The notes under the pieces are model-generated. The model made no database searches. It saw only the letters and a program-made list of their open reading frames with translations, and was not told where the DNA came from. Below are positions 15,614 through 52,886 of a stretch of 64,000 nt of DNA, in pieces. How positions within the stretch are numbered: the first letter of the stretch is position 1; the number at the start of each line of letters is the position of its first letter. A program made the translations under genes and the position numbers. Origin of the DNA: an uncultured Actinomycetes bacterium (GTDB taxonomy: Bacteria > Actinomycetota > Acidimicrobiia > Spongiisociales > ZC4RG35). The stretch spans positions 265,987-329,986 of the forward strand of contig CAVSQY010000008.1 in assembly GCA_963730285.1 (NCBI GenBank). The letters run 5' to 3'.

Positions 15614-16156
15614 TCAGCCCCCGACACGATTCATTCCGAGAAGGACTACCTCGACCTCCTTCGGGGCGATGGGCGGATAGAAGACCATCGTGTAGAGGTC
15701 GCACCGCTCACCAGGGGCCTCGTACCAACCCGCGACCCAGGTCCCGTCGGCGTGAGGGCCCACGGCCGCCCTGGTCCCATCGATGAGTATCTCCCCCTTC
15801 TCCCCGGGCCAATCAACGGGCGGGAGGGTGCCCCGGACCAAAGCTATCGCCACGGTGCCGTCGTTCCGCCCGAAGAGGACGGCGCTCGTCCCAGGGACCG
15901 ACGTCCAGACATCCGGCTCGACCTGATCGGGGTCCAGAGCCGTCTCTCCCACTCCGGTTGGGACCACATCTAGCTGATAGGGGGCAGTGGGGCATTCCAC
16001 CGGCGGCTCTGTGGTGGTGGTGGTTCCCAACGTCGGGCCGGTGGTGGTGGCAGACACAGTGGGCTCAGGGCCATCGGCTCCGCTGCCGCATGCCGCGATC
16101 AACAGCAGAAGGGCCGCCAGTGCCCACACCGCGGGATGGGTATGACGCGGACTCAT
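15614..16156 (-). CDS. Hypothetical lipoprotein
   Basis: Signal peptide with lipobox (AVWALAALLLLIAACGSG) then a Thr-rich linker; start ATG overlaps the stop of the upstream PQQ-repeat gene (ATGA); stop abuts the trp promoter. Confidence 0.65.
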   Translation of the reverse strand: MSPRHTHPAVWALAALLLLIAACGSGADGPEPTVSATTTGPTLGTTTTTEPPVECPTAPYQLDVVPTGVGETALDPDQVEPDVWTSVPGTSAVLFGRNDGTVAIALVRGTLPPVDWPGEKGEILIDGTRAAVGPHADGTWVAGWYEAPGERCDLYTMVFYPPIAPKEVEVVLLGMNRVGG

Positions 16157-17727
16157 CGCAGTGCCCGGATGTACCCGTCGCGAGAGCCGATGTAGATGCT
16201 GCCCTTCCAGATCGCAGGTGTCGATTCGAGACAGGCACCACCGAGGTTCAACGACCACAACTCGACTGGGTTTCGAGGATTGTCGAGCGAATAGGCCCTG
16301 ACGTCTCCACTACAAGTGGCGGTGACCAGTGTGCCGTCCACTATGGAGGGTGACGACCAGGAGTGGAATCCAACGTCGTCGCTCCAGAGCACGGCGCCGG
16401 TGTCGGCGTCGACGGCGATGAGCTGTCCTTGTTGGATATTGACATAGACGACACCCTCATAGAGGGCGGGTGTCGACCAGGATCCCGAGTCCGCGCTTCC
16501 CGAGGTGAGGTCCACGCCCCAGACACGCGGATCGTCTTCGGCATAGGGATTGAGCTTGATGAGCTGGCCGACCTCCAGATTGCGAGCTCGCTCCACCGAT
16601 CCCATCTGAGATGGCTCGTGTTCGATGGCGACATAGAGCATCCCACCCTCATCGACGGTCATCGTCGCGTCGATATCACCACCCGCGTAGTAGTCGAACA
16701 CGATCGGGGCCTCGCCATTGAGGACATTCGACACATCGAGGCCAACCACCCTCCCCCCCGAGTTGGTGAAGTAGACCCTCTGATCGAAGACGAGAACCGA
16801 GCTCTCGATTGACACGTTTCGACCCGACTTTGATATCAGCTCGTCGTTGTAGCCGGGCATCTCGACCAACGGGACCGGGTCGACGATCACCTTGCCATCG
16901 CTGTCGTATCCCCGGTTGAGCTTGATGGCGAAGAACCAACTGTTCTCTCCACCCTCGTACATGACATCGTCGACGATCGCGGGGTTGGAGTCCCAGTCGT
17001 TGTTCCAGATCCCGTTCACCTCACTGGCATCCATCGACCAGAGGACCGAGGGAGTTTCCCGGTCGAGGGCGAGTATTCGCAGCTTGTTGTCCCGCGACCC
17101 GGTGTACAGGAGCGGAAAACCATCCGGGTCGATCGTCACCGAGCCCTTGATGATGTCCCCGGTTTGGAACTTCGGCCTCAGATCGGCGCCGGTGTCGGCA
17201 TCCACGAAGTGCAGCGCCGCGTCATATGCCCCAAAGATCAGCTCGGTGACACCATCCGGGCGCTCCCACACCGCCGGCTGACCGGTCCACCCCATGCCGC
17301 ACCAGATACGCGATTCACCACCTTCGGACGATGAATGGCACATCTGGGAGTCGGGATATCGCCAGGCCACCGTGGGCGAATCGGGAACAGGCCCCATCCC
17401 GTAATAACTCCGGGTCGGATTGCCGCGAAACATGGTGAGCCCGACGGTCGTGCCCCACGGTTGGCCGATCGTGAAGGCGGGAACCGTGCCGGGAGCCCTC
17501 ACTTCGGGAGCGCTGGTGGATGTCGTGCCCGGCACCGTCGTGGTCGAGGTAGTGGACGACTCCGGCCCTTTTCCCTTGTTGTCGGCAGGCTTGGTGGTGG
17601 TCGGGCTCACTGGTGTGGTTATGTCGATGTTTCCCTTAGGTCCGCCTCCGGCGATGAAGAAAGCAGACACCCCGAGGACACATCCCCCGGCAACCACGGC
17701 AAGGATCTGGCCGGTCCGCTCCTTCAT
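16153..17727 (-). CDS. PQQ-like beta-propeller repeat protein, N-terminally membrane-anchored with Thr/Ser/Pro-rich linker
   Basis: N-terminal TM (ILAVVAGGCVLGVSAFFIAGG), low-complexity TTKPADNKGKGPESSTTSTTTVPGTTSTS linker, then repeated beta-propeller blades with recurring W/G motifs (VLWS..., GVVYV, GSIYIGSRDGYIRAL). Confidence 0.7.
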   Translation of the reverse strand: MKERTGQILAVVAGGCVLGVSAFFIAGGGPKGNIDITTPVSPTTTKPADNKGKGPESSTTSTTTVPGTTSTSAPEVRAPGTVPAFTIGQPWGTTVGLTMFRGNPTRSYYGMGPVPDSPTVAWRYPDSQMCHSSSEGGESRIWCGMGWTGQPAVWERPDGVTELIFGAYDAALHFVDADTGADLRPKFQTGDIIKGSVTIDPDGFPLLYTGSRDNKLRILALDRETPSVLWSMDASEVNGIWNNDWDSNPAIVDDVMYEGGENSWFFAIKLNRGYDSDGKVIVDPVPLVEMPGYNDELISKSGRNVSIESSVLVFDQRVYFTNSGGRVVGLDVSNVLNGEAPIVFDYYAGGDIDATMTVDEGGMLYVAIEHEPSQMGSVERARNLEVGQLIKLNPYAEDDPRVWGVDLTSGSADSGSWSTPALYEGVVYVNIQQGQLIAVDADTGAVLWSDDVGFHSWSSPSIVDGTLVTATCSGDVRAYSLDNPRNPVELWSLNLGGACLESTPAIWKGSIYIGSRDGYIRALR

Positions 17728-17739
17728 CGCCGACGCAAA

Positions 17740-18837
17740 TCAGGAAGGGGGCCCACAGGGGGGCTCGGCAGTGAGCACCGGATGTCCATGACTCTCGATG
17801 TAAGCCGGGATGAGACACGCATCGATGGATCCGTCCGGCGACACCACGACCCTGGCTACAGCGGTGGTCGCGCTGGGCTCGGACAGATGTGGCCAGACGA
17901 AGTTCGCCAGAGACCAGAACACCGGTGCCCCGTCGATAAAGTCGAGTGGTTGGAGACGATGAGAATGACCGCCGAAGATGATGTCGGCGCCGGCATCGAC
18001 CATCGCCTGGGCGCGCTCGACGTCATCGGCATCCGGGGTCGTGGCCAACTCATGACCCCAATGGACCACGACTACCACGAGATCCGCTACTTCGTCGGCC
18101 GCCTTGACCGCCTCGACCATGGACCCGGTGTCGTTGCCACTACGCATGCCGGGCGTGTCCTCGGTGGCATACCAGGACGGGTCGGGGGCGACACCGCCGA
18201 ATCCGACCACGGCAATCTTCCACCCGTTGACTTCGAACAAGGCAGGCTGGCCGGCCTCGTCAACATTTCGACCCGCCCCGACCGGGGCGACACCCGCTGC
18301 GATCAGACTGTCACGCCCGTCGACCAGGGCCTCCTTGCCAAAGTCACCCGAGTGGTTGTTGCCCATGTTGGCAACGTCTACTCCGTTGGCCGCCAGGGAG
18401 GGCAACGCTTCGGCAGGGCACCTGAAGACAAACGCCTTGTCCAACGGCTCGCCGATGTCGGATGGGGTGCATTCGAGGTTGATGATGGTCAGGTCGTCGT
18501 CGAGGAAGAAGCCATCGAGCCCCGACCAGGCATGATCCCATCCGTTCGTCGCCAGGGCGGGGATGTAATCGGGGTCGACCGCCACGTCACCGGTTCCCTG
18601 GATCACCAAGTAGCCCTTGGGTGGGATGGTTGTCGTGGTGGTGGTCGAAGTCGTCGTGGTCGAGGTCGAGGTGGTGGTCGAAGTACTCGTGGTCGCGGCA
18701 CCCCCGATGACCAATGACGTCGGGAAGGCGTCGGCGGTGCCATCGTTCAAACCCGACATGAGAAACAAGGTTGTGCCGAGCGCGGCACCACCGACCAACG
18801 TCAACAGGATCCGGAGGATTCGGGGCATGGGCTGCAA
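17740..18837 (-). CDS. CapA family protein (PGA_cap metallophosphatase-like), paralog of 4185-5282
   Basis: N-terminal TM, poly-Thr/Ser linker (TTSTSTTTSTSTTTTSTTTTTT), CapA-type motifs (DLTIINLE, VVVVVHWGHE, FGGHSHRLQP, SLANF); 12 nt upstream of the PQQ-repeat gene. Confidence 0.75.
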   Translation of the reverse strand: MQPMPRILRILLTLVGGAALGTTLFLMSGLNDGTADAFPTSLVIGGAATTSTSTTTSTSTTTTSTTTTTTIPPKGYLVIQGTGDVAVDPDYIPALATNGWDHAWSGLDGFFLDDDLTIINLECTPSDIGEPLDKAFVFRCPAEALPSLAANGVDVANMGNNHSGDFGKEALVDGRDSLIAAGVAPVGAGRNVDEAGQPALFEVNGWKIAVVGFGGVAPDPSWYATEDTPGMRSGNDTGSMVEAVKAADEVADLVVVVVHWGHELATTPDADDVERAQAMVDAGADIIFGGHSHRLQPLDFIDGAPVFWSLANFVWPHLSEPSATTAVARVVVSPDGSIDACLIPAYIESHGHPVLTAEPPCGPPS

Positions 18838-18912
18838 ATCAGGTTATCGGCCTCCACCCGATTATCGGCTGTGCTCATCCAGACATGGCGTAATCTCACG
18901 AGCTCGAGACCA

Positions 18913-20148
18913 ATGAAAGGGCCGGTCACCTTGAATCGTGGCGTCACGTGGACCGTCTGGGTATTTGCCTCGCTGATCCTCGTCGGAACCGTGGTCGGCA
19001 TCGCCCAAGGGTTGGCCGACGGCCAGTTCGTCGGGACGACTTTGGACCAGGCAGGAGCATTGGCCTGGAACCTCCTACCACTCTCGTTCGCTGCGACTGC
19101 GGCGGTGATCGTTTCCAGACAACCCCGCAACCTGGTCGGATGGCTACTGATGGTTCCCGCCCTTGCCGCACCGGGAGACACCATCTTCGCCCCGGTGCTG
19201 GATGCCCTGACGAGACGGCCCGACGTTCTGTCGGGGTGGCAGGTGGCGGCCTTGTTCTGGAGCAATTGGTCGTGGATCCTTCTGATCTTTCCCGTGTTTC
19301 ATCTGCTGTGGGTCTTCCCAACCGGCAGGCTGCTGTCGAGACGATGGCGCCTGGTCGTGGCATTGGAGGTCACCATGGCCACCGTGCTTCTGGCGGCTTC
19401 ACTCTTCGGATCGAGCATCGGGCCTGTGGACAGTTGGCAGATGGCCAATCCGATCGGGTTCATCCCGATCGGAGCGTTCGACTTCATCTATGGCAACGAC
19501 AACTTCGTCTGGACAATCGGTCTTCTGGTGCTCACAGTGGCGGGTGTCGCCGCGATAGCCCTGCGCTACCGCAATTCCGGGACGGTCGAGCGAGGGCAGA
19601 TCAAATGGTTGCTATACGCGGTCGCAGTGTTTGGCTTGGTCTACGCGGCGGCAGCCTCGTTCACGAGCTTCGCCGATGGCGGGATCTTCGATCTCTTGCT
19701 CGCCACAACGCTGATGTCCATCCCCGTCAGCATCGGGATCGCCGTCCTCAGATATCGACTCTTCGACATCGATCTGATCATCCGAAGGACCCTCGTATAC
19801 ACGGTGTTGACCGGGACATTGATCGGCATCTACGTCGGGTCCGTGGTGATCCTCCAAAACTTGATCGGAGGCGCCATAGGAGAACAGTCACCACTCACCG
19901 TGGCAGCCTCCACCCTCCTGATCGCCTCACTGTTCAACCCGGTGCGTCATCGCCTCCAGCGAGTGGTCGATCGCAACCTGTTCCGATCCAAATACAACAC
20001 TCAAAAGGTGGTGGAGGCGTTCGTCGCCACTACTCGCGACCAGGCAGATGTCGATCAGCTCGCCGCCGACCTCCTACAACTGGTCGAGAACACCCTCCAG
20101 CCCAGCGTCCAAGGCGTCTGGGTCAAAGGCGCTGCTCAGAGGATCTGA
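18913..20148 (+). CDS. Polytopic membrane protein resembling the N-terminal sensor module of actinobacterial histidine kinases (no kinase domain)
   Basis: About 8 TM helices, then motifs [45 protein letters not shown] and [12 protein letters not shown] that normally precede HisKA in sensor kinases; ends without a catalytic domain; start at 18871 or the internal ATG 18913; disrupted paralog at 51619-52772. Confidence 0.6.
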
Positions 20149-20915
20149 CTGAGGAAGAGCTTGGTCCGGTCTTCCTGAGGATCGGTGAAGAAGTGCTCCG
20201 GCGTCCCCACTTCGACTATCTCGCCGTCGGCCATGAACACCACCCGGTTGGCCACGGCGCGGGCAAACCCCATCTCGTGCGTGACGACGATCATGGTCAT
20301 GCCCCCCTCGGCTAGCTCGACCATGACATCGAGCACCTCCTTGATCATCTCGGGATCGAGGGCGGATGTCGGCTCGTCGAACAACATCACCTTGGGTTGC
20401 ATTGCCAAGGCCCGGGCGATGGCCACCCGTTGTTGCTGACCACCTGAGAGCTGACCCGGGTACTTGCGCGCCTGCTCGGGGATCTGCACTCGCTCCAGCA
20501 TCTCGAGACCGAGCTCCTCGGCTTCCTTCTTGGGGAGCCGGCGAACCTGGCGCGGGGCCAACGTGATGTTGTCCATGATCGAGAGGTGAGGGAACAGGTT
20601 GAATTGCTGGAAGACCATCCCGGTCTCACGTCTGATCTCTTGGATGTTCCTCAGATCATCAGACAGCTCGGTCCCATCGACCACGATTCGGCCGGCATCG
20701 TGCTTCTCCAACCGGTTGATGCATCGGATCATGGTGGACTTGCCCGAGCCGGAGGGTCCGATCACGACCACCACCTCCTGACGGCCAACCTTGAGGTTGA
20801 TGTCCTTGAGGGCCTGGAACGTCCCAAAGAACTTGTCGACGTGCTCCAACTCGATGGCAGCATCCCCCATCGCCTGCGTGGCGTCGGCGAATACTGACGG
20901 TCTGGCATCGGTCAT
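20136..20915 (-). CDS. Polar amino acid ABC transporter ATP-binding protein (system 1)
   Basis: Walker [10 protein letters not shown], signature [14 protein letters not shown], Walker [13 protein letters not shown]-loop VTHEMGFA; 3' end overlaps the convergent gene by 13 nt. Confidence 0.93.
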
Positions 20916-22165
20916 CTCGTGCCCACTCCTAGCTTTCTCTCCAAACGTTGGCTTTCCCGCGACATGGTGAACGATCCCACCCAGAACAGGAAGGCGACAA
21001 AGGCGAGGGTCTCGATTATCAATCCCTGCCCGCGGAACACGTCCTGTTGGGTGATCACCCTCGCTCCCCGCAACAGATCGAGGACACCGAGGGCGAGACC
21101 GGCAAGGGTGGTGTCCTTGAACAACGAGATGAATTGGCCGATCTGGGCCGGTATCACATTCCGCAGGGCCTGGGGGAGGATTATGCGTGTCGTTTGGGTG
21201 AACGGGCTCAGACCCAGGGCCTTTGCCGCCTCTTCCTGACCTCTCGGCACCGATTGGAGCCCACCGCGGACAATCTCGGCCAGATAGGCCGCGGTGAACA
21301 ATGTGAACGTGACCACGGCCCGCACCGTCTTGCTGGGGGCGATCGAGGCCGGGACGAAGAACTCCAGGGACACGTTGGCCAACAACAACAACACATAGAG
21401 GGGAGCTCCGCGCACGAACTCGATATAGGCGATCGACAGCGAGCGGAGCAGGGGAAGCTTCGACCTACGACCGAGAGCGAGGAGGACCCCCAGTGGGAAG
21501 GAGAGGATGATCCCGGCGGCGGCCGAGGTGAGGTTGAACATGAAGCCCTCCCATTCGGCAAATGGGACGGCATCGACGAGATAGAAGAAGACGACGAACG
21601 GTGTCGCAGCCATGATCAGGATACCGAGCCGACCGAGCAGCGACGGGACGGCCATTGCCCCGAGACGGGACCCGATCTGCCACCCCAAGAGGACTCCGAC
21701 CAGAAGGCCGAGTCCGGCCAGCCACGGTCCACCGCTGCTGGTGAGCAGCAGGAGGAGCAAGACCGTGGCGATGATCAGGCCGAAGCGCCGGGTCAGGTCG
21801 GCGGCCCTCGTCCAACCGCTGAGCAGCTCGCCCTCGTCGGCAAGTCGGAGCTGACGGGCCCGAATCAACCCGGCGATGACGCCTCCCCACAGGCCCATCA
21901 CACCCAATGCCACTGCGATCCGTGGCAGATGCTCCGGGGGCCAGCGTCCGACCAACAGCAACTTGAGGTTGACCCGAATGATCTCCCAGCGAGCGGTGAC
22001 GAAGACAAAGTTGAGGAATTGGAACACCAGATAGATCCCCAAAGCCCCGAACACCATTGTGAGCAGACCATCCCACTTGGACCGAAACAGGTTGTGACGC
22101 ATCCAGGCGACTACCGGAGAAGGAGGAGACGACGAAGTCGGCCTCGTGGGGGCAAGATCGGTCAT
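20912..22165 (-). CDS. Amino acid ABC transporter permease (system 1, second permease)
   Basis: Start [12 protein letters not shown]... chosen at the ATG overlapping the upstream permease stop (ATGA) with GGAGAG RBS; the longer track ORF N-terminus is Arg-rich artefact; EAA-loop region ([26 protein letters not shown]). Confidence 0.85.
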
Positions 22166-23325
22166 CTCTCCACCAAGGCGAATCGGCGATTGGCCACATT
22201 GACGAAGGACGAGGTGACAAGAGACATCATCACGTAGAAGACCAGTGCGATGGTGAAGGCCGGGACCGCAGGCGAGCCATTGCCCACAGTGATCTGAGTG
22301 ACGTTGGTCAACTCGAAATAGGCGAACCCGGCTCCCAGAGACGAGTTCTTGAGCAGGTTCAGGTATTGATTGCCCAGGGGTGGGATCGCGATCCGCATCG
22401 CCTGGGGCAACACCACGTTCCACATTCGCTGAAATGGGCTCAGAGCGAGGGCGCTGGCCGCTTCGCCCTGGCCCCGGGGAACGGCCTGGATCGATCCGCG
22501 TACGATCTCGGCGATGTGACTGGCGGTGTAGATGACCAGGGCGATGAGCACCGCGAAATAGGAGGGGTCGATCTTGATCCCACCCACGATCTGAAGGCCA
22601 ACCCGGGCGGGAAGGGTCAGGTTGAAGCCAAATGCCAACCAGCCCGACACCAGGACGAGCAACAGGAAGACCGAGCCAATGAGCCCGGAGCGGGCGGGTG
22701 CTCCGGTGGCCTCTGACACAGAGCGTCTCCATCTCGCGATGAGCCACCAGCCTGCGATGCCGACGACCAGCAAGAGAAAGATGATCCCGCCGGAGTTCCC
22801 CTCATACCAGGGGACACCGATCCCCCGATTGGAGATCACCAACCACCCGAGCGGCAGCCAGGCCTCCTGAATCCTCGGTAGAGCTTGCAGAACCACACCG
22901 AGGAAGGTGAAGACCATTATCACCAGAAGCGGGAGATTCCTGATCACCTCGACGTAGATGGTCGAGAGCTTGTTGACCACCCAGTTGGTGGAGAGACGCC
23001 CGATTCCGATGAGGATCCCGAGGATCGTGGCCATGATGATGCCCACCACCGCCACCCTGATGGTGTTGAGGATCCCGATGACGAAGGCCGACCGGACTGC
23101 CTGGGTCTGGGCAAAGTCACTCCCGGTGATCTCGAAGTTCGCCGGGTTGGAGAGAAAGTCGAAGTTGGTGGGAATGCCGCTCGAGGCAGTGTTGGCGGTG
23201 TAGTTGCCCAACAGCCAATACACGATGGCGGCGACCACGGCGAAGACCACCAGCTGGAACACCCAAGACAGGACGCGGACATTCCGCCACAACGGCGGTC
23301 TAGGCGCCTTTTCAATGGTCGTCAT
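22162..23325 (-). CDS. Amino acid ABC transporter permease (system 1, first permease; AapQ/BztB-like)
   Basis: Multiple TM helices; conserved permease motif ASALALSPFQRMWNVVLPQAMRIAIPPLGNQ. Confidence 0.88.
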   Translation of the reverse strand: MTTIEKAPRPPLWRNVRVLSWVFQLVVFAVVAAIVYWLLGNYTANTASSGIPTNFDFLSNPANFEITGSDFAQTQAVRSAFVIGILNTIRVAVVGIIMATILGILIGIGRLSTNWVVNKLSTIYVEVIRNLPLLVIMVFTFLGVVLQALPRIQEAWLPLGWLVISNRGIGVPWYEGNSGGIIFLLLVVGIAGWWLIARWRRSVSEATGAPARSGLIGSVFLLLVLVSGWLAFGFNLTLPARVGLQIVGGIKIDPSYFAVLIALVIYTASHIAEIVRGSIQAVPRGQGEAASALALSPFQRMWNVVLPQAMRIAIPPLGNQYLNLLKNSSLGAGFAYFELTNVTQITVGNGSPAVPAFTIALVFYVMMSLVTSSFVNVANRRFALVER

Positions 23326-23377
23326 GATCGAGAGGGTGTGGGTCGGCGAATTCGCCGACCCACACCCTCATTGAGCT

Positions 23378-24520
23378 CTACCGATAAGGCGGTGGATAGA
23401 GCAGGCCACCATCGGTCCAGAGTGCATTGACCCCACGCTCGAGACCCAACGGCGTCAGGTTCCGCTCGAAGATCTCGCCGTAGTTGCCGACCTGCTTCAC
23501 CACCTGATAGGCGAAGTCGGTGGGGAGCCCGAGACCGGGGTCGAGGACCGTCATGGCCCCATCGGTCTCGAATTCGGCACCGAGGAATCGCTTGATGTTC
23601 AAGTCCTCGCTGGAGGCCAACATGTCGTCGACGTTCTCCGATGTGATCCCGAACTCCTCAGCCTGGATCGTGGCGTAGATCGCCCAGTTGACGACCTGTG
23701 CCCAGGCGGTGTCACCGTCGGCCACGGCAGGAGCCAAAGGCTCCTTGGAGAAGACCTCGGGCAGGATGGTCAGAGCTTCGGGCCCGTCGGGGTAAACCGA
23801 GCGCAATCCGGTCAGCTGGCTGACATCCGAGCTCCAACCGTCACACTGACCAGCGAGGAAGGCCTCCTGGATCAGGTCGGGGTCGTCGAAGGGGCGCACC
23901 TCCCAGTCCAGACCCAGACGGTCCGCCTCGGTGACCGCGTTACCCTCGGTAGTGGTCCCCTTGGCCACACAGACCACAACGCCATCGAGATCGGACACAC
24001 TGGTATAGCCACTGTCCGTCGCCACCATCATCCCCTGCCCGTCATAGAAGTTGGGCTGGAGGAATGTCGCTCCCTCATTCCCGTCACGGGTGGCCGTAAA
24101 GGTGGTGTTTCTCACCAGGACATCGATCTGCCCCGACTGCAGAGCAGTGAAGCGATCAGCTGTTTCCAGATCCACGTGATTCACCTTCGTGGCGTCACCA
24201 AGGACGGCCGCGGCGATCACCCGGCAGAAGTCGGAGTCGAAACCTACGTGCTCTCCCGAGTCATCGAGTACGGCGAAGCCGGGGAGGGCATCACGGGTCC
24301 CACAATTGAGCTCATCTCGGGCGATGACCTCGTCGAGTAGTGAACCGCTGTCCCCGCCATCGCCGGGAGCCGCGGCAGTTGTGGTGGTGTCCCCCCCGCT
24401 GTTGTCGCCAGAGTCGACGGCAGCACTGGTGGTGGTCTCGTCGCCGCCACTGTCCGAGGTGCAGGCCGCCAGCACCAGCATCAGGGCGGTGAGAACCGCC
24501 AATAGTTTGCTTACTTTCAT
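23378..24520 (-). CDS. Amino acid ABC transporter substrate-binding lipoprotein (system 1; general L-amino acid type)
   Basis: MKVSKLLAVLTALMLVLAAC lipobox after GGAGG RBS; type-II periplasmic binding fold; Thr/Asp/Gly-rich linker. Confidence 0.85.
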   Translation of the reverse strand: MKVSKLLAVLTALMLVLAACTSDSGGDETTTSAAVDSGDNSGGDTTTTAAAPGDGGDSGSLLDEVIARDELNCGTRDALPGFAVLDDSGEHVGFDSDFCRVIAAAVLGDATKVNHVDLETADRFTALQSGQIDVLVRNTTFTATRDGNEGATFLQPNFYDGQGMMVATDSGYTSVSDLDGVVVCVAKGTTTEGNAVTEADRLGLDWEVRPFDDPDLIQEAFLAGQCDGWSSDVSQLTGLRSVYPDGPEALTILPEVFSKEPLAPAVADGDTAWAQVVNWAIYATIQAEEFGITSENVDDMLASSEDLNIKRFLGAEFETDGAMTVLDPGLGLPTDFAYQVVKQVGNYGEIFERNLTPLGLERGVNALWTDGGLLYPPPYR

Positions 24521-24623
24521 TTTGCCTCCATAGGGTCGCGTCACACGCACCAAGACAAATTGGTGTGCGAGTTGCAGGTGGCGACCCTAGCCATTCACCC
24601 TCCGGCTGTGCCCGGGTGTTTGG

Positions 24624-25364
24624 TCAGGCTTCGGTCATGAGGCTCAGGAAGCGTCGTGCCCGATCGGTGCTCGGATCCACCAAGACCCGAGCAGGCGGCC
24701 CCTCTTCGATGACCTTCCCCTCATCCATGAAGACCACCCGATGGGCGACATCTCGTGCGAATCCGAGCTCGTGGGAGACGACGATCATGGTCATCCCCTC
24801 CAGAGCAAGGGTCTTGATCACCGACAGGACCTCCCCAACCAGCTCGGGGTCGAGAGCGCTGGTCGGCTCGTCGAAGAGCATCAATGCCGGGCTCATAGCC
24901 AGCGCTCGAATGATGGCCACCCGCTGTTGCTGCCCGCCCGACAGCCGGTCCGGGTACTCGTCGCGCTTGGCTCCCAGATCGAAGCGCTCCAGGAGGCGAA
25001 TTGCCTCGGCCTCGGCCTCTTCGGGTGCGGTCTTGAGCACCTTTTTTGGTGCGAGCGTGATGTTATCCATCACCGACAGGTGCGGGAAAAGGTTGAAAGC
25101 CTGAAAGACGATCCCGATCTTGCGGCGGACCGAGTCGGCGTTGAACTCGGGGTCTGCGATGTCAACACCTTCGAGCAGGACCTTCCCGTCATCGATGGGC
25201 TCGAGCAGGTTGATGCAGCGGAGAAGCGTGGACTTTCCCGAGCCGGAGGGCCCGACAACCGCCACCACCTCGTGTTTGGACAATTGCAGGCTGACATCGG
25301 AGAGCACCACCAGGTCGCCGAACTCCTTCCAAACGTGCTCGACTGCGAGTAGGGGAGAGCTCAC
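24624..25364 (-). CDS. Polar amino acid ABC transporter ATP-binding protein (system 2)
   Basis: [46 protein letters not shown]; GTG start overlaps the upstream permease stop (GTGA); the longer track ORF N-terminus is artefact. Confidence 0.9.
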   Translation of the reverse strand: MSSPLLAVEHVWKEFGDLVVLSDVSLQLSKHEVVAVVGPSGSGKSTLLRCINLLEPIDDGKVLLEGVDIADPEFNADSVRRKIGIVFQAFNLFPHLSVMDNITLAPKKVLKTAPEEAEAEAIRLLERFDLGAKRDEYPDRLSGGQQQRVAIIRALAMSPALMLFDEPTSALDPELVGEVLSVIKTLALEGMTMIVVSHELGFARDVAHRVVFMDEGKVIEEGPPARVLVDPSTDRARRFLSLMTEA

Positions 25365-26230
25365 ATCACACCACCGGTGACCCGTTTTCTCTGCTTTGCG
25401 ATGAGGTAGTCGGTGAATCTGGCGAGTGGGATGGTGAGAATCAAGAACAAGAGGGCCGCAGCCAGATAGGCGGTGAAATTGAAAGTGCGTGCGTTGTAGA
25501 TCTGGGCACGGCGAAACGCCTCCTGGACCCCGAGCAGGGCGACCAGGGCGGAGTCCTTCTGCAGGGCAACGAAATCGTTGAGCAGCGGTGGGATGACGCG
25601 CCGGACCGCCTGGGGCAGCACCACCCAGCGCATCGACTGGCCTGAGGTGAGGCCGAGTGACCGGGCCGCCGCCCGCTGGCTCTCGTGCACCGACTCGATG
25701 CCGGCCCGATATATCTCGGCCACGTAGGCCGAGTACGAGATGACCAAGGTTGCAATCGCCCAGAACTCCTGACTGTTGGGTACGCCACGAAGCGAGAGTG
25801 CGGGGACTCCGAAGCCGAGGAGATAGAGAAGGATGATGGTGGGGATGCCCCGGATCAGGTCGACATAGCCGGTTGCGGCGAGCCTCAGTGGGGTCAGGAC
25901 CGGTGATCGGCTGTTGCGGATCACGGCCAGGGTCAGGGCCACGATCAGGATCAAGACCTCGGCGATCATGAAGATCCGGACATTTCGCTTGAACCCTTCG
26001 AGGATCTGTGGAAAGGAGGCCTTGAAGTCCTCCCAGCTGAAGAAGGACTCGCGGACGGCGGCCCAACCCGGTGAGCTCACCACGAGGTAGGCGATGGTCC
26101 CGAACACCACGACGCTGCTGATGGCCCCGATGATCAGGGAGCGGCGTCTCTGGGCCTTCTGAAAGGCGAGACGCCGTGCCCGACCCGGTGACATGCCCGG
26201 ATCTCGACGCGGCGCCTCGGCCTCAGTCAT
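25361..26230 (-). CDS. Polar amino acid ABC transporter permease (system 2)
   Basis: His/Gln-type permease with EAA-like loop (AARSLGLTSGQSMRWVVLPQAVRRVIPPLLNDF). Confidence 0.88.
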   Translation of the reverse strand: MTEAEAPRRDPGMSPGRARRLAFQKAQRRRSLIIGAISSVVVFGTIAYLVVSSPGWAAVRESFFSWEDFKASFPQILEGFKRNVRIFMIAEVLILIVALTLAVIRNSRSPVLTPLRLAATGYVDLIRGIPTIILLYLLGFGVPALSLRGVPNSQEFWAIATLVISYSAYVAEIYRAGIESVHESQRAAARSLGLTSGQSMRWVVLPQAVRRVIPPLLNDFVALQKDSALVALLGVQEAFRRAQIYNARTFNFTAYLAAALLFLILTIPLARFTDYLIAKQRKRVTGGVM

Positions 26231-26246
26231 CTAGTGGTCTGTGAGG

Positions 26247-27083
26247 TCAGGTCGTCGGGATGACCGGTGCATCGACAACGTCCGACAGCCACTCCTTCTG
26301 AATCGCGTCCAGATCGATATTGCCAAGGGCCTCGTTGACACAGTCACGCAGAGGGTTGCCCTCCTCGAAAAGCATCCCGAACTGCTCGGGGTTGTCACCG
26401 CTGGATGGGAACTGGGCTATCACGGCCGAGCCCTCGATCTCGACCGCCGACACGTAGAAGGCGGTGGGAAGGTCGAGGATCAACCCATCCAACTGCCCCG
26501 CGTCAAAAGCCGCCTTGGCGTCGGCGTTGCTGTCGTAAACCAGCGGCTCCGTGTCGGGTTGGATCACCTCGTTGATGAAATCGAGGCTGGTGGTGCCCAC
26601 CTGTGCGCCCAATCGATAACCCTTGAGGTCATCGATGGTGGTCGCCGAGGCAATGTCCGAGTCGGAGAACCCGAGCAGGGCCTGGTTGACGTTGTAGTAG
26701 CCGTCGGAGAAGTCGACCACCTGGTCGCGCTCATCGGTGATCGAGATCTGGTTGATGTCGAAGTCGAAGTTCTTCTCGCCCGGCGCATACGAGTTGTTGA
26801 ACGGCACAGTGACCCACTCGACCTCGTCTTTGGAGAACCCAAGCTGGTCCGCCACTGCATAGGCCACGGCGCTCTCGAAACCGGTTCCGGTGGATGGGCC
26901 GCCGTCGAAGTCGAACCAGGGCGGGAAGGCGGGATCGTCCGTCCCGATGGTCAACACGCCGTCCTGGACGAGATTGAGGTCCTCCTTGGCACATGACTGG
27001 CCAGAGGTTCCCCCGGTCTCGTCGGTGCCGCAGCCGGCCAGCACGAGAGCGAGCACAGCTACCAGGGCGATGTACTTCTTCAT
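26247..27083 (-). CDS. Amino acid ABC transporter substrate-binding lipoprotein (system 2)
   Basis: MKKYIALVAVLALVLAGCG lipobox; SBP_bac_3-type fold; paralog of the system-3 binding protein. Confidence 0.85.
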   Translation of the reverse strand: MKKYIALVAVLALVLAGCGTDETGGTSGQSCAKEDLNLVQDGVLTIGTDDPAFPPWFDFDGGPSTGTGFESAVAYAVADQLGFSKDEVEWVTVPFNNSYAPGEKNFDFDINQISITDERDQVVDFSDGYYNVNQALLGFSDSDIASATTIDDLKGYRLGAQVGTTSLDFINEVIQPDTEPLVYDSNADAKAAFDAGQLDGLILDLPTAFYVSAVEIEGSAVIAQFPSSGDNPEQFGMLFEEGNPLRDCVNEALGNIDLDAIQKEWLSDVVDAPVIPTT

Positions 27084-27134
27084 GAGTGAACTCCTCCAGA
27101 GGCGGATTCAAAGGGTGATGGGAGCGTAGTGCTG

Positions 27135-27875
27135 CTATTTCTCGAGCACCATGCGGAGGAAGCGGCGAGCGCGTTCGGTCTTGGGGTCGACCAGGACCTC
27201 TCCCGGAGGGCCTTCCTCGACGACGACGCCACCGTCCATGAAGACGACACGGTCGGCGACCTCCTGGGCAAATCCCATCTCATGGGTGACGACCATCATG
27301 GTCATCCCTTCGTTGGCCAGCTTGCGCATCACATCCAAGACCTCACCGATCAGCTCCGGGTCGAGGGCGGACGTTGGCTCGTCGAAAAGCATCATGTCGG
27401 GGTTCATCGACAGGGCACGGGCGATGGCCACCCGCTGCTGCTGGCCACCGGAGAGATGCATGGGGAAGGCATCGACCTTGTCGGAGAGCCCTACTCGTTC
27501 CAGAACGTCCCGCGCCACCAGCTCCGCTTCTGCCTTGCTCCTTTTCAGCACCTTGACCTGGGCAATGGTCAGATTCCCCAGCACGGTCAGATGAGGGAAC
27601 AGGTTGAACTGCTGGAAGACCATGCCGATCCGGGTGCGGAGGCGATCAACGTCTGCGTCGGGGTGGGTTATGTCCTCCCCCTCGATGAGGATGGTCCCTG
27701 AAGTGGTCTCCTCCAGACGGTTGACACAACGGAGCAATGTCGACTTGCCCGAGCCTGATGGCCCCAAGACGCAAACCACCTCCCCCGGATCCACCCGAAA
27801 GTCGATGCCTTGGAGGACCTCGAGCTCGCCGAAGTACTTGTGCAGATCCTTGATCTCTATCGCGGGCTGGGTCAT
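27135..27875 (-). CDS. Polar amino acid ABC transporter ATP-binding protein (system 3)
   Basis: [47 protein letters not shown]; close paralog of the system-2 ATPase. Confidence 0.92.
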
Positions 27876-28708
27876 CGCGCTTTCGCCGTCCTTTTCTCGA
27901 GACGTCGGACCAGATAGGTGAGGGGCAGGGTGATGATCAGGTAGACGATGGCCACCACGGTCAATGGCGTCGCGTTCTGCGTGGTGCTCATGAAATCCCT
28001 GGCGAATTTGGTCAGCTCCTTGGTGACCGGGGTGGTCCCCAGCACGAAGAGAAGCGAGGTGTCCTTGATCAACAGGACGAACTCATTGGTGAGTGGCGGG
28101 ATGATGATCCGAAAGGCCTGAGGGAGCACGATCGAGCCCATGGCCCGGGCCGGGCTCATGCCCAACGATCGGGCGGCTTCCGCCTGGCCCTTGGGCACCG
28201 CCAAGATGCCGGCCCTGATCGTCTCCGCCATGTAGGCGGCGGCGACCACGCCAAGTGCGACCGAGCCGGTGACCAGGGTGCCGCCGGGAAGGTGAAATTG
28301 AAATGCAAGGGGAAGGCCATATCCGAAGAGGATGATGGTGATCAGAGCGGGAAGCCCTCGAAACAGCTCGATGTAGCCGGTGGCAAACCAGCGATAGGGC
28401 TTGATGGTGGAGAGCTTCATCAGGGCCAGGATCAGGGCGAGGATCAGCCCGAACGCGAAAGCCCCCGCGGTGTAGACCAAGGTGTTGCGGGCCGCGATCA
28501 GCAGAACTTCCGGGAGCATCTCCCTGAGGACGTCTGTCTGGAAGAAGGAAAAACGGATCTTCTCCCAGTTGGCCACCAGGGCAAACAGGACGACGGCGAC
28601 GACGAAGACGGCGTACATCGCCCAGCGGCCCACCCGCCGTCGTTGTCTTCGAGTGAGTGTCATGAGACCGTCGGACGACCCCCCGTCACGGGGGGTCGTC
28701 CATGCCAT
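27872..28708 (-). CDS. Polar amino acid ABC transporter permease (system 3)
   Basis: EAA loop ([33 protein letters not shown]); ATGA overlap with the ATPase; alternative internal start at 28663. Confidence 0.85.
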
Positions 28709-28723
28709 TTCAGATCAAGTGGC

Positions 28724-29506
28724 CTACTTGAACCAATCGGCGTAGATGTCGTCGTAGGTTCCGTCGTCCTTCAACTTGGCCAGTTCGGTGTTGACCGCGT
28801 CGAGCACGTCTTCGGCGCCTTCCTCCTTGACCGCAAAGCCGTACTCCTCGTTGGTGGGATAGGTCTCAACGATGCTGGCGTCGTGATCCAATGCGTATTC
28901 GGCGTTGGGCACGATGTCCTGGAGCACCCCCACGACGTTCCCTGCCTCCAAGGCGAGGAACATATCACCCGGGTTCTCGTATGAGATCAACTCTGTGTCG
29001 TCCGGAGCGTTGTCGTTGGCATAGTCCTCACCGGTGGTCCCTGTCTGAACGGCGATCGACATCCCACCCGAGCTGGCCAGGTCGGTCAACCCTGAGCCAT
29101 CGGCGCCCAAGAGCGACTGATCTGCTGTGAAGTACGGGTCGGAGAAGTCGATGTTCTGCTCACGCTCCTCAGTGATGGTGATCGAAGCCGCAGCCACATC
29201 ACAGCTGCCGCCCTCCATGGCCAGACCCGAGGTGATCGGGTCGAACCCGGTGTTGTTCACCTCCAGGGTGAGACCTAGATCATCGGCCATCGCCCTCATC
29301 AACTCGATGTCGAACCCGGTGTACCCGCCCTCGGCGCTGGAGTCCTCGAACTCCATCGGCTTGTAGGGGGCATCGGTGCAAACGGTCAGAGTGCCGTCCT
29401 TCACCAGATTCAAGTCACTGCCGCTGGACCCCGAGTCGCCGCCGCAGGCAGCGAGCACCAGGGCAAGGGCGGCCGCGGTGGCCACCAGCCTTGTCATATT
29501 CTTCAT
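28724..29506 (-). CDS. Amino acid ABC transporter substrate-binding lipoprotein (system 3)
   Basis: MKNMTRLVATAAALALVLAACGG lipobox preceded by GGAGGA RBS; start chosen at 29506 rather than the track start. Confidence 0.82.
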   Translation of the reverse strand: MKNMTRLVATAAALALVLAACGGDSGSSGSDLNLVKDGTLTVCTDAPYKPMEFEDSSAEGGYTGFDIELMRAMADDLGLTLEVNNTGFDPITSGLAMEGGSCDVAAASITITEEREQNIDFSDPYFTADQSLLGADGSGLTDLASSGGMSIAVQTGTTGEDYANDNAPDDTELISYENPGDMFLALEAGNVVGVLQDIVPNAEYALDHDASIVETYPTNEEYGFAVKEEGAEDVLDAVNTELAKLKDDGTYDDIYADWFK

Positions 29507-29533
29507 TTCTTCCTCCATGAGCGTTTCCGGGAC

Positions 29534-30790
29534 TTGGTCCCGGGAGATGGAGGGTATACCCGGGCCGATGACGGGCACAATGGGGAAGTGACCACACGAG
29601 TCAAAGCCGCCCGCGACTACTGGCTCCTGTGGACAGGTTCGGGGCTGTCCAACCTCGGCGATGGGATCAGGCTCACTGCTCTTCCCCTACTCGCCGCCAC
29701 CCTCACTCGAGACCCTCTGGCCGTAAGCGGGGTGTTTGCCGCAACCACCGCCCCCTGGATTGTCTTCGGTCCAATCGGTGGCTCGCTGGTCGACCGGGGC
29801 AACCGACAACTTCTGATGGTCTGGGGCCAGTTCGCCAGAGGCCTCACCGTGGCCGGGCTCGCCGTGCTGGTCGCCAACGGCCAGGTTGCCATGTGGCATC
29901 TCTACCTTGCGGGAGTCGTGATCGGTGTCGGTGAGGTCCTGGTCGACAGCTCTTCCCAGGCGGCGATTCCGCTGCTGGCGGGCAACCTCGACCTGGAACA
30001 GGCGAACTCGAGGCTCATGGCCGCCGAGTTCGCCCTCAATGACCTGGTGGGGGGGCCGGTCGGCGCTTTCCTCTTCGCCCTGGCCGCGGCAATCCCATTT
30101 GGGGTGGACGCCGCAACCTTCTTGATCGGCGCCCTTCTCATATCTCTCATCCGAGCTCCGATGCAACAAGTGAGGGACAGCCAACACCAGACCATGCGCG
30201 CCGACATCGTCGAGGGGCTGGCCTTCGTCTGGCGACACGACCTCTTGCGGGGACTGGCCCTGGCCGTGGCGGTTGCCAACTTCAGCATGGGGGCAGGCGG
30301 GTCGGTGCTGGTCCTCCTGGCCATCGAGGAGCTCGGGCTCACCAATCCTCAGTACGGGCTGTTGGTTGGCCTGGGATCGGTCGGCGGGTTGATCGGCGCC
30401 ATGACTGCATCGCGTATCTCGTCCCGCATCGGCAGGAGGTGGACGATGACATCGGGGGCGGCACTTCTCTCGGTCGGCCAGCTGGCCATCGGCCTTTCGC
30501 CTGGAGGTGTCATGGCGGCCGTTGGCCTGACAATCGGTCTCTTCGGCGCCACCATCTTCTCGGTGGTGGGTCGCTCACTGAGACAAACCGCAAGCCCGGA
30601 CCGGCTGCTCGGCCGGGTCGTCGCATCGTTCCGCCTCATCGCCGTCGGGGCCTTGCCACTCGGTGCCCTCTTTGGTGGCTGGGTGGCCCGTCAGACCGGT
30701 CTGCGCGCGCCCTACCTGATCGGAGCCGGGCTGATCGTGGTGGCCTCGGCGGTCATCTACCGGGTCTCGACCCCCGACCGTGTCAAATGA
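29534..30790 (+). CDS. MFS transporter (12 TM, EntS/Bcr-like)
   Basis: Hydropathy typical of MFS; start codon uncertain (no in-frame ATG near the 5' end; TTG at 29534 or GTG near 29587); 3' end overlaps the convergent dxs by 8 nt. Confidence 0.7.
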   Translation: MVPGDGGYTRADDGHNGEVTTRVKAARDYWLLWTGSGLSNLGDGIRLTALPLLAATLTRDPLAVSGVFAATTAPWIVFGPIGGSLVDRGNRQLLMVWGQFARGLTVAGLAVLVANGQVAMWHLYLAGVVIGVGEVLVDSSSQAAIPLLAGNLDLEQANSRLMAAEFALNDLVGGPVGAFLFALAAAIPFGVDAATFLIGALLISLIRAPMQQVRDSQHQTMRADIVEGLAFVWRHDLLRGLALAVAVANFSMGAGGSVLVLLAIEELGLTNPQYGLLVGLGSVGGLIGAMTASRISSRIGRRWTMTSGAALLSVGQLAIGLSPGGVMAAVGLTIGLFGATIFSVVGRSLRQTASPDRLLGRVVASFRLIAVGALPLGALFGGWVARQTGLRAPYLIGAGLIVVASAVIYRVSTPDRVK

Positions 30791-49686: not shown

Positions 49687-51201
49687 TCAGCCGAATTCGA
49701 TTCCCTGGGCGAGCGGGAGATCGTCTCCCCAGTTGATCGTCGTCGTCTGCCGACGCATATAGGCCTTCCAGGCGTCGGAGCCGGCCTCACGGCCTCCCCC
49801 CGTCTCCTTCTCGCCACCGAATGCGCCGCCGATCTCGGCACCGGACGTGCCGATGTTCACGTTGGCTATGCCACAGTCGGACCCCGTGTCACTCAGGAAC
49901 CGCTCGGCGTTCTTGAGGGACTCGGTGAAGATGGCCGAAGAGAGGCCCTGGGTCACTCCGTTCTGGATGGCGATGGCCTCTTCCAGGCTGTCGAATTCGA
50001 TGACCCAGAGGATCGGCGCAAAAGTCTCCTGTTGGGTGATCGAGGCCTCTTTGGGAACCACGGCGATGGTCGGCTCGACGAAGAAGCCGTCTCGATCGAC
50101 TCGCTGGCCACCGGTCACGATCCTTGCCCCCTGTTCCCGGGCCAAGTCGAGAGCCGCCATCATCTGATCGACCGCTTTCTCTCCTGCCAGCGGCCCCATC
50201 AGTGTCCCGGCCTCGAGCGGATCACCCACCTTGACCTGGCGATATGCCTCGACGAGCCGGCTGATCAACTTGTCGGCTACGGCCTTGTGCACCAACAGGC
50301 GGCGCAAGGAAGTGCAACGCTGGCCGGCGGTGCCTACCGCCGAGAACACCGTGGCCCGAACGGCCAGCTCGAGGTCGGCATCGTCCATCACGATGACGGC
50401 GTTGTTCCCCCCCAACTCGAGGATGGTCCGACCCATTCTCTGGGCGACCGCGGGGCCGACGATCCGGCCCATGTTGCAGGACCCCGTCGCCGAGATGAGA
50501 GGAAGCCTCGTGTCCTGGTTCATTCGGGTGCCAACCGTGGCGCCATCACCGACGACGAGGTTGAAGACCCCCTCGAAACCACTACCGGCCATCACATCGC
50601 TGGCGATCTTGGTGACGGCGATGGCGGTGAGAGGGGTCCGTTCCGAGGGCTTCCACACGACCGTGTCCCCACACACTGCTGCGATCGCCGCGTTCCAGGA
50701 CCAAACCGCCACCGGGAAGTTGAAGGCCGAGATGACTCCAACCGGGCCCAAGGGGTGCCACTGCTCGTACATACGGTGGTTGGGCCGCTCCGAGGCCATC
50801 GTGTTGCCATACAGCTGACGGGACAACCCGACGGCGAAGTCGCAGATGTCGACCATCTCCTGGACCTCACCCACCCCCTCGGGGAGGATCTTCCCCACTT
50901 CGAGGGTCACCAGGGCACCCAGAGGCTCGATCTTGTCCCGAAGGGCGTCACCGAGCTTACGGATGTACTGGCCCCGCTGAGGCGCGGGAAGCGCTCTCCA
51001 TCTTTGGAAGGTCTCGACCGAGTTTGCAGCCACACGGTCGTAGTCGGCTACGGAAGCCATGGTGACCCTGCCCAGGTTGTCGCCGGTGGCCGGGTTCACC
51101 ACTTCGATTTCATCGCCGCCGGCGTCGAGCCACTCACCGGCATAGACCCCCGAGTTGACCCTGGACAGGCCCAACGCCTCAAAGACTTGTTGTTGGTTCA
51201 T
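49687..51201 (-). CDS. Aldehyde dehydrogenase, ALDH7/antiquitin-like (alpha-aminoadipic semialdehyde / piperideine-6-carboxylate dehydrogenase)
   Basis: ALDH catalytic Cys (GQRCTSLRR), Glu (LELGGNNA), NAD motif (FNFPVAVWSWNAAIAAVCGDTVVWKPSERTPL) and C-terminus TINWGDDLPLAQGIEFG characteristic of ALDH7. Confidence 0.85.
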   Translation of the reverse strand: MNQQQVFEALGLSRVNSGVYAGEWLDAGGDEIEVVNPATGDNLGRVTMASVADYDRVAANSVETFQRWRALPAPQRGQYIRKLGDALRDKIEPLGALVTLEVGKILPEGVGEVQEMVDICDFAVGLSRQLYGNTMASERPNHRMYEQWHPLGPVGVISAFNFPVAVWSWNAAIAAVCGDTVVWKPSERTPLTAIAVTKIASDVMAGSGFEGVFNLVVGDGATVGTRMNQDTRLPLISATGSCNMGRIVGPAVAQRMGRTILELGGNNAVIVMDDADLELAVRATVFSAVGTAGQRCTSLRRLLVHKAVADKLISRLVEAYRQVKVGDPLEAGTLMGPLAGEKAVDQMMAALDLAREQGARIVTGGQRVDRDGFFVEPTIAVVPKEASITQQETFAPILWVIEFDSLEEAIAIQNGVTQGLSSAIFTESLKNAERFLSDTGSDCGIANVNIGTSGAEIGGAFGGEKETGGGREAGSDAWKAYMRRQTTTINWGDDLPLAQGIEFG

Positions 51202-51578
51202 CGCGCCGCCACCACCTCTATCTCGACGAGAAACCCACCGGGCAATGCCCCCGCCTGAAAGGCAGAGCGCGCCGGTGGGGCACCCTTGAAGCAGCCGCCA
51301 TAGATCTCGTTGACCTTCGGGTAGTCGGCCATGTCGGAGAGGAAGATCGTCGTCTTCACGATGTCGTCATAGCCCAGGCCGACGTCGTCGAGCGTGGCAC
51401 CGATGTTGTCCATCACCTGACGAGCCTGGACCTCGATGTCGTCCGGGCGCCGGTCCCCCGTGACCGGGTCGATCGCCACCTGCCCGCTCAGGAAGACCAG
51501 GCCAGCGGCCTCGGTGACCAGGGAATATGGGCCTATCGCACTCGGTGCAGACGGCGTCTCGGGTACGGTCTTGGGCAA
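51198..51578 (-). CDS. RidA family protein (YjgF/enamine-imine deaminase)
   Basis: 126 aa, RidA motifs (AIGPYS, VKTTIFL, ARSAFQAGALPGGFLVEIE); ATGA overlap with the ALDH start. Confidence 0.88.
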   Translation of the reverse strand: MPKTVPETPSAPSAIGPYSLVTEAAGLVFLSGQVAIDPVTGDRRPDDIEVQARQVMDNIGATLDDVGLGYDDIVKTTIFLSDMADYPKVNEIYGGCFKGAPPARSAFQAGALPGGFLVEIEVVAAR

Positions 51579-51618
51579 TTCGGGGCTCCTCTCGGCAACA
51601 GGTTGAGAGTACCCGAGA

Positions 51619-52772: not shown

Positions 52773-52886
52773 CGCGATCGACCATGCGAACCCCAGATAG
52801 CAGTCGGGCCCACTTCATCACATGATGATCAGGGCTCTACCGTTACGAGTCAGTTACGAGGTCGGCCGGACGAGCCGAGGCTATCT

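Follow-up and report, generated by a model that had tools for sequence, protein, structure and literature searches.

Here we describe a gene, copy 1, in a 64,000-nucleotide stretch of contig CAVSQY010000008.1 from an uncultured bacterium of the Acidimicrobiia (the window). On balance its product is probably a functional stand-alone membrane sensor module that signals via a separately encoded partner. Judging from sequence comparison, its family appears to be the sister of the membrane sensor module found in kinases that carry a GAF-like domain and HisKA_3 behind the module, and within the family the stand-alone form appears to be the rule, kinase-less by design and not by decay. The preliminary description of this DNA had called copy 1 a kinase-less sensor-module protein, which holds, and had named a stand-alone sensor, a decoy and a domesticated kinase remnant as its possible natures. 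The sensor is the best supported of these, the decoy finds local support in operons of the Ktedonobacteria, and the remnant is rejected below. A paralog, copy 2, is present in the same window.

An intact ten-helix membrane module

The open reading frame (ORF) of copy 1 spans 18871-20148 (+), and its likely start, the ATG at 18913, yields a product of 411 amino acids (aa). The same 411-aa product is called in JGI and Logan contigs, the identical protein (P0001) being present in 5 independent contigs. Copy 1 is under purifying selection in the population, and the 6-7 nucleotide differences found between it and five contigs of the same population (L001-L005) are all synonymous, with 0 non-synonymous changes. 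Its 3' end (20148) overlaps a convergent gene for an ATP-binding cassette (ABC) ATPase (20136-20915, -) by exactly 13 nt, as had been described.

The AlphaFold model of copy 1, built on an alignment of 64 relatives, has a mean predicted local distance difference test (pLDDT) score of 86 and shows ten membrane-length helices with a short outward-facing hairpin loop. The tenth transmembrane helix (TM10) continues into the cytoplasm as part of a 50-residue helix (aa 327-376), which is followed by one further short helix, and pLDDT is low from about aa 390 to the C-terminus, that is over the last ~15 residues. Hydropathy gives nine strong peaks and a short tenth helix. As the basic residues are clustered on alternate loops, on one face of the protein (the positive-inside pattern), both termini are placed in the cytoplasm. 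Model, hydropathy and charge pattern together give ten helices and not the eight or so counted earlier.

The family alignment contains 22 invariant columns, which fall within SRQPRNxxGW, WxxxNPIGF, RYRxxxxERxQxKW, RYRLFDID, FNPxRxR, DRRFYRxxY, QPxxxGxW and one 11-residue segment. These columns are occupied mostly by Arg, Trp, Pro, Gly and Asn, and none of them by Asp, Glu, His, Ser or Cys. All three motifs pointed out in the preliminary description (RYRLFDID, FNPVRxRLQxxVDRxxxRxxY and LQP...W, the last being LQPSVQGVW at aa 395-403 of copy 1) are present and conserved across the family; the positions of the first two are given in Table 1. In RYRLFDID, L283 is invariant and D285, I286 and D287 are 89-96% conserved, in stand-alone and kinase-fused members alike.

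The family and the known domains

A word-indexed homologue search with copy 1 gave 2047 matches, and the best 120 of these are almost all "hypothetical proteins" of 390-440 aa from Acidimicrobiia and Chloroflexota. A profile search over 1.84 billion representatives found 39,700 clusters at E<=1e-3 and 10,103 at E<=1e-30. Copy 1 itself matches the family profile (alignment A1) over its full length, at profile positions 3-399 and with 529 bits, and shows 38-52% identity to 63 relatives. Within the family the sensing N-terminal half has a mean identity of 37%, as against 53% in the TM9-TM10 core. Copy 1 is therewith an ordinary member of a common but uncharacterised family, which by these searches appears to be ancient, very large, unnamed and without a Pfam model above threshold. 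A protein of 587 aa (P0109), considered as a longer variant of the family, was rejected as a read-through of two tandem copies.

Pfam gave zero matches to copy 1 at E<=1, and hence neither a HisKA nor a HATPase domain. HisKA_7TM (PF16927, gathering threshold 28.6 bits), which has been described as a kinase sensor domain (PMC5847659) and against which a check had been suggested, did not match copy 1. It reached 22.9 bits (E 8.6e-5) with a fragment of copy 2, below the gathering threshold, and touched 6 of 64 relatives, all of them sub-threshold (best E 2e-6). This weak likeness lies in the TM4-TM6 region; HisKA_7TM differs in having seven helices instead of ten, and Pfam models its kinase-attached form only. 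In the literature HisKA_7TM came up in surveys only, and we found no paper dealing with stand-alone forms or with the Chloroflexota cassette described below. The sole NCBIfam match of copy 1 is PrsK (TIGR02916), the histidine kinase of the XrtA/PEP-CTERM system. TM6-TM10 and the tail, the C-terminal half of copy 1, align to the N-terminal region of PrsK (133-349, E 7.4e-6), and yet copy 1 scores 24.8 bits and copy 2 11.7 bits against a cut-off of 300; unlike PrsK, copy 1 has neither kinase domains nor a PEP-CTERM context. Solved structures gave no match to copy 1 by sequence or by fold, the best TM-scores being 0.2-0.3 with generic or G protein-coupled receptor-like helical bundles.

Stand-alone and kinase-fused modules

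The long relatives of copy 1 are kinases composed of the module, a GAF-like domain, HisKA_3 and HATPase_c, and they are homologous to copy 1 across the whole module. In five of them (P0209, P0210, L025, L039 and L048), which are 29-38% identical to copy 1, the module is followed by HisKA_3 and HATPase_c, and a GAF match was detected in three. The preliminary description had proposed that relatives be searched for a fused kinase domain, and it is the distant ones that carry it: in 79 loci of GTDB species genomes, relatives whose alignment runs to the last residue of the query have 0-25 aa left beyond it, and more distant relatives (~30% identity) in the same loci continue for 270-450 aa. The kinase C-termini of L025, L039 and L048, used as tblastn queries, found no match across the 64-kb window.

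Fused kinases such as P0209, P0210 and L048 4636-6744 of Ktedonobacter robiniae resemble copy 1 in the whole ten-helix module, and share with it RYRxxxxERxQxKW, RYRLFDID, FxPLRxRxQ and helix 1 and strand 1 of the GAF-like domain. Unlike them, copy 1 stops after strand 1, being without the rest of the GAF-like domain, HisKA_3 and the ATPase, and it has a different tail signature and belongs to a separate clade. By direct alignment copy 1 ends after the first helix and the first strand of the short GAF-like domain of the fused kinases, ~8 residues past strand 1 of this GAF-like stub.

The shared C-terminal core of 162 sequences was compared in a neighbour-joining tree (midpoint-rooted), which places all 24 fused members in one pure clade, the 132 stand-alone members forming the rest. 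Column statistics show the same division along the protein: the membrane-core motifs, with F341, P343 and R345, are common to both groups, which diverge from D353 on. Specific to the stand-alone proteins are R358 (100%, G in the fused members), Y361 (98%), and F370, P397 and W403 (96-98%, with P397 and W403 at 96%). Copy 1 has all five of these residues and ends 8 aa past W403, and so passes as a stand-alone member. Fused members carry NRLVYGxRDEPY and are without QP...W. The three motifs had first been taken as normal parts of the linker of sensor kinases, which is true of RYRLFDID and the FNP motif and not of LQP...W, which is limited to stand-alone proteins.

Operons of the family in Chloroflexota and Ktedonobacteria

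In Chloroflexota the modules form tandem arrays, with 52 extra copies beside 44 targets; L061 has a row of at least seven. Loci of 19 Chloroflexota species combine the array with a same-strand protein of ~540 aa, the effector, that consists of a GAF-like region, SpoIIE/PP2C and HATPase_c_2. The effector gene follows the array, but precedes it in L019 and L026, and 17 of the 19 loci, in which the flank is covered, contain one or two STAS genes on the effector side away from the array. The effector is 60-70% identical across Chloroflexota and never fused to the module; in a homologue search its best 120 matches are all Chloroflexota proteins of ~540 aa, none fused to the module and none from Acidimicrobiia.

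Conservation within the effector is highest in the GAF-like region, which is related to the GAF-like domain of the fused kinases (hhalign probability 96%, E 3.5e-9); a hidden Markov model (HMM) of this region matches the fused kinases down to E 2.5e-8. As a related GAF-like region is present in both the effector and the fused kinases, the module and the effector are connected by a fusion-versus-split (Rosetta-stone) link. AlphaFold models the PP2C and ATPase domains of the effector confidently. No sheet is predicted for its GAF-like region, in which residues 85-104 have pLDDT <50; the conserved stub of the module is likewise of low confidence in its own model.

The N-terminus of the effector (L008 12766-12870; also L012, L021, L030, L043 and L057) carries a conserved basic amphipathic peptide, M-x-T-x-hR-x-FW-x4-G-x-K, that is followed by a linker rich in proline, alanine and glutamate. 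In the AlphaFold model the peptide is a separate helix of low confidence (residues 4-17), and it may serve to dock onto the membrane or the module.

The Chloroflexota effector shares its PP2C and kinase/anti-sigma core, and the adjacent STAS partners, with the HsbR/HsbA and CrsR/CrsA partner-switching systems (PMC6482189). The convergence of several membrane sensors on one effector is common to the HsbR/CrsR systems and the Chloroflexota arrays, and yet the effector has a GAF-like input instead of a receiver domain, and the presumed inputs are kinase-less membrane modules, as opposed to hybrid kinases acting via HptB (PMC6482189). The window contains no components of the HsbR/CrsR type. A similar logic is found in the stressosome, where several RsbR paralogs, each variable in its sensing half and conserved in its docking half, act on a single PP2C-based partner switch; the RsbR proteins are soluble STAS-domain proteins and are not known to be related to the module in sequence or fold.

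Cultured Ktedonobacteria show a different arrangement. The operon of Ktedonobacter robiniae (L048 4636-8726, NZ_BNJG01000002.1) comprises, in this order, a full-length module kinase, a NarL-type regulator and a stand-alone module, and L050 is a second kinase-regulator-module operon of this kind.

Proposed mode of signalling

Based on our data we propose that the helix bundle, with its conserved outward-facing W-x3-NPIGF loop, would detect a membrane or extracytoplasmic cue. The signal would then pass through the conserved cytoplasmic face (RYRxxxxERxQxKW, RYRLFDID and one 17-residue segment) and the long TM10 helix, as in the fused kinases. The output would not be phosphorylation by the module itself; instead, the stand-alone-specific tail (DRxFYRxxY ... 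F ... QPxxxGxW) would contact a separately encoded cytoplasmic signalling protein. The homology to the kinase sensor module, the architecture, the conservation and the operon association are observations; that the tail touches a partner, and what kind of signal is involved, we infer from them. The most probable partner in Chloroflexota is the protein encoded directly behind the arrays, with its GAF-like region, PP2C phosphatase and RsbW-like kinase, together with the STAS proteins. In Ktedonobacteria it may be the paralogous full-length kinase of the same operon, and in the source genome it would be encoded outside the 64-kb window.

Several observations weigh against this proposal. The association with a partner switch is confined to Chloroflexota, the phylum to which all of the best 120 effector homologues belong. 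By tblastn and HMM search no gene for a PP2C, STAS, GAF-like fragment or kinase partner lies near either copy in the window, where the components of the Chloroflexota cassette (PP2C, STAS, GAF-like fragment) gave no match at all, nor did they in the Acidimicrobiia loci. The Acidimicrobiia orthologs, which sit among amino-acid ABC transporter operons, have no partner gene nearby. No ligand, solved homolog or fold match was found for the module, and the tree of the module core, being neighbour-joining and midpoint-rooted, is built on only ~200 columns. Finally, hhalign sets the first conserved segment of the effector opposite strand 1 of the fused GAF-like domain, which leaves a clean complementary split of the GAF domain unsupported.

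The last point bears on a more specific version of the proposal, in which the tail stub, as the counterpart of helix 1 and strand 1 in a GAF-like fold, would complete in trans the incomplete GAF-like domain of the effector. The arrays would then be a repertoire of kinase-less receptors with fast-evolving sensing halves, a conserved docking half and one shared effector, and the Acidimicrobiia copies would likewise act on an unlinked effector. We offer this version tentatively and consider it rather unlikely; if true, many membrane inputs would drive one partner switch through domain completion in trans. In its strict form, read from the Pfam coordinates of the effector (GAF_3 positions 44-127), the effector would lack exactly the stub of the module; this was not upheld by direct alignment and hhalign. 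As direct alignment shows the GAF-like domain of the fused kinases to be shortened, the Pfam coordinates are no safe register.

Alternative functions

The module could instead have a non-signalling housekeeping function in the membrane, e.g., in transport, in lipid or envelope metabolism or as an accessory of amino-acid uptake, and have been co-opted by kinases as an input domain. Ten helices with conserved polar motifs would suit such a function, and in the four Acidimicrobiia lineages examined the gene is always convergent to a polar amino-acid ABC ATPase gene despite local rearrangement. The gene order around three Acidimicrobiia orthologs (46-49% identity) is PQQ-propeller, PGA_cap, ABC operon 1, module (+) and convergent ABC operon 2; in the window it is PQQ-propeller, PGA_cap, module, ABC operon 1, ABC operon 2. 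However, as the neighbouring proteins are 46-86% identical among these moderately related genomes, inherited gene order suffices to explain the synteny. The absence of invariant Asp, Glu, His, Ser and Cys leaves no catalytic or transport-type pattern, the fold comparison retrieved no transporter, and the Chloroflexota operons link the family to signalling proteins. We regard a housekeeping role as unlikely.

A role as decoy or co-sensor seems to us quite unlikely. The module would here form a heterodimer with a full-length paralogous kinase by way of its membrane bundle and long helix, and would modulate this kinase negatively or serve as a second input. Stand-alone modules do adjoin full-length paralogous kinases in L039, L048 and L050, with a NarL-type regulator in the same operon in L048, and the membrane-core motifs are common to both forms. 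Yet no full-length paralog is found in the window or near the Acidimicrobiia orthologs, most arrays are without a fused kinase, and the stand-alone-specific tail favours a distinct contact over mimicry.

That copy 1 is the degenerate remnant of a sensor kinase after loss of the GAF, HisKA and ATPase domains, drifting or recently domesticated, is highly improbable and is rejected: although copy 1 is closely related to the kinase modules and ends inside the region that is a GAF-like domain in its fused relatives, almost all of the more than 130 close relatives examined share its end point across two phyla, the fused members are one separate clade, the tail of this large stand-alone family has near-invariant residues of its own, the variants in the population are all synonymous, and no kinase-like sequence is found downstream or elsewhere in the window.

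The neighbourhood of copy 1 in Acidimicrobiia

Downstream of copy 1 the window holds three consecutive polar amino-acid ABC transporter operons (20136-29578, -), each with ATPase, permease(s) and an SBP_bac_3 binding protein. A listed ORF of 611 aa (20912-22747) over-extends the real permease of ~415 aa. In L092 and L095 the module gene lies between ABC operons 1 and 2, as compared to its position before operon 1 in the window, which indicates a local rearrangement. On the other side, a PQQ-like beta-propeller protein (524 aa) and a PGA_cap/CapA-like protein (362 aa) are encoded at 16153-18828 (-) and are kept beside the ABC/module cluster in all four lineages; a tryptophan biosynthesis operon, annotated in L001 and L002, is found further upstream of this pair. 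In another Acidimicrobiia metagenome-assembled genome (MAG; L011 9163-11180, -) a stand-alone module faces, in convergent orientation, a NarL-type regulator and a kinase that is unrelated to the module family. The N-terminus of this kinase appears PspC-like by eye from the translation, the Pfam check having been made on the regulator only.

Table 1. Coordinates of the features of copy 1 and copy 2 within the window.
Feature	Position	Strand	Basis
Copy 1 (type A), intact stand-alone ten-helix membrane module, 411 aa	18913..20148	+	ORF, family profile, AlphaFold model
RYRLFDID, aa 280-287, cytoplasmic turn TM8-TM9	19750..19773	+	conservation
FNPVRxRLQxxVDRxxxRxxY motif, aa 341-361, from the end of TM10 into the long cytoplasmic helix	19933..19995	+	conservation, model
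C-terminal stub, aa 379-406, counterpart of GAF-like helix 1 and strand 1 in fused kinases	20047..20130	+	alignment
Divergent intergenic region, 84 bp, with TTATCGG pair	18829..18912		sequence
Copy 2 (type B paralog), frame-disrupted in this contig only	51619..52818	-	tblastn
Direct repeat CTCGTAAC-tga-CTCGTAAC (- strand reading) upstream of copy 2	52842..52860	-	sequence

Copy 2 and its frame breaks

Copy 2 is 40-44% identical to copy 1, and over its last 140 aa it shows 79% identity to P0053 and P0064. It had been described as a frameshifted paralog at 51619-52772. The paralogy and the disruption over three frames, with at least six frame switches in the window, are as described and its span is somewhat longer (Table 1), but the frameshifts are not reproduced elsewhere. 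The locus is open over the full 392 aa in L085, L088, L096 and P0267-P0269, open up to the contig edge in L086, L089 and L090, and intact also in P0271 (the protein of L096). In total an open frame is present in at least nine other records, including Logan and JGI contigs of the same population, NCBI MAGs and every other assembly found. Thus, independent assemblies read through in one frame, the outcome that the preliminary description itself had set against its frameshifts. An exact look-up of the ORF fragments found only the 134-aa C-terminal fragment (P0265) on record, in a single NCBI/ENA contig, where it is the gene call of the source record. Scans of the metagenome_contigs collection for the frameshift allele, and for a control pattern common to both alleles, gave no match, this organism not being represented there.

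Alignment of the window to L085 opens 22 gaps between 52888 and 52043 (~850 bp), whereas the 10.4 kb around copy 1 have none when compared with contigs of the same samples; L096, at 82% DNA identity, agrees with L085 at every indel. Local divergence is ~12% in the 5' 400 bp of copy 2, against ~0.5% in the flanks (window versus L085) and 0.2% around copy 1. Such a local excess over the flanking divergence rules out slow neutral decay as the cause. The bases peculiar to the window match an alternative allele, the 407-aa type of L091, at homologous positions: 17 window-specific 9-mers are found there, compared to a control mean of 1.5 and a control maximum of 9. The matching patches include GGTTCGCATGG, CCGACCCCCT, ACCCTTACCC and TAG-AGATAGC.

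The locus between the IscA-like and the RidA-like genes is polymorphic (window 51198-53249; L091 409-1710; L096 2575-5938). It holds the 392-aa type B alone in the window and L085, the 407-aa type alone, directly after the IscA-like gene, in L091 (where the contig ends inside it), and both in tandem in L096. The two types are nearly identical in their C-terminal 140 aa and only ~38% identical in the N-terminal sensing half. The stop codon of the IscA-like gene is TAG in the window and L091, and TGA in L085 and L096.

As judged from these matches, copy 2 of the window is apparently a mosaic of two alleles. Collapsed haplotypes in the consensus of the long contig are the more likely cause, and short tracts of gene conversion the less likely one. 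The collapsed-haplotype explanation is favoured because a similarly error-dense stretch occurs in L094, a sibling long-contig ENA assembly: at L094 1503-4448 the first ABC operon is broken up into ORFs of 81-160 aa, the counterparts of which are intact in L092 and L095 (257, 415 and 378-390 aa).

That copy 2 is a genuine pseudogene of the source strain, with real frameshifts, seems doubtful to us. It would account for the number of frame switches and for the source record's gene caller finding just the C-terminal fragment, and the patch with the TAG stop and AGATAGC is a real allele, present also in L091. The indels, however, are local and unique to this contig, the gene is open in all other records, with L096 sharing each indel state with L085, and the odd bases match the 407-aa-type allele; independent sequence of the same population did not reproduce the disruptions. 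An apparent pseudogene in a long metagenomic contig can be a mosaic of two co-existing alleles, and caution is due in reading it.

Upstream repeats and promoter-like elements

Direct repeats of 8 bp had been reported upstream of each copy. That of copy 1 is present, but it is the 7-mer TTATCGG, at 18844-18850 and 18862-18868 (11 nt apart) and not at 18846-18870. It is at chance level: such a 7-mer pair occurs in 12% of random 84-bp windows of this DNA, and the pair is absent upstream of the copy 1 orthologs. The promoter scan found no sigma-70-like promoter, with terminator-like sites at chance level, and an Rfam scan of the window gave no matches.

The repeat of copy 2, GTTACGAG, is likewise present, at 52842-52849 and 52853-52860 rather than at 52828-52846. 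Comparable 8-mer pairs turn up in 2% of random windows, and a core pair of CGTAAC is retained in L085, L091 and L096 (to 82% DNA identity) while the flanking bases diverge. In the window (52800-52886, -) a -10-like GATCAT box, GATAAT in L085, stands 9 nt before the ATG of copy 2, and the CGTAAC repeat lies around the -35 position. The placement of the two suggests a leaderless transcript, and the repeat may be a real promoter-proximal element, part of a leaderless promoter or an operator.

Implications

Polytopic sensor modules of kinases are among the least understood inputs of bacterial signalling, and most members of the family described here have no kinase attached. It seems that the module is a signalling unit in its own right, which would couple non-covalently to different outputs, being joined to a HisKA_3 kinase when fused and probably acting on a PP2C/STAS switch when separate. 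We consider the association with a partner switch at the level of the family as the most interesting lead. The operon offers a defined system for how a membrane bundle signals to a cytoplasmic enzyme, and a cultured host is at hand in Ktedonobacter robiniae (NZ_BNJG01000002.1), in which the stand-alone gene lies at ~2281784-2283073.

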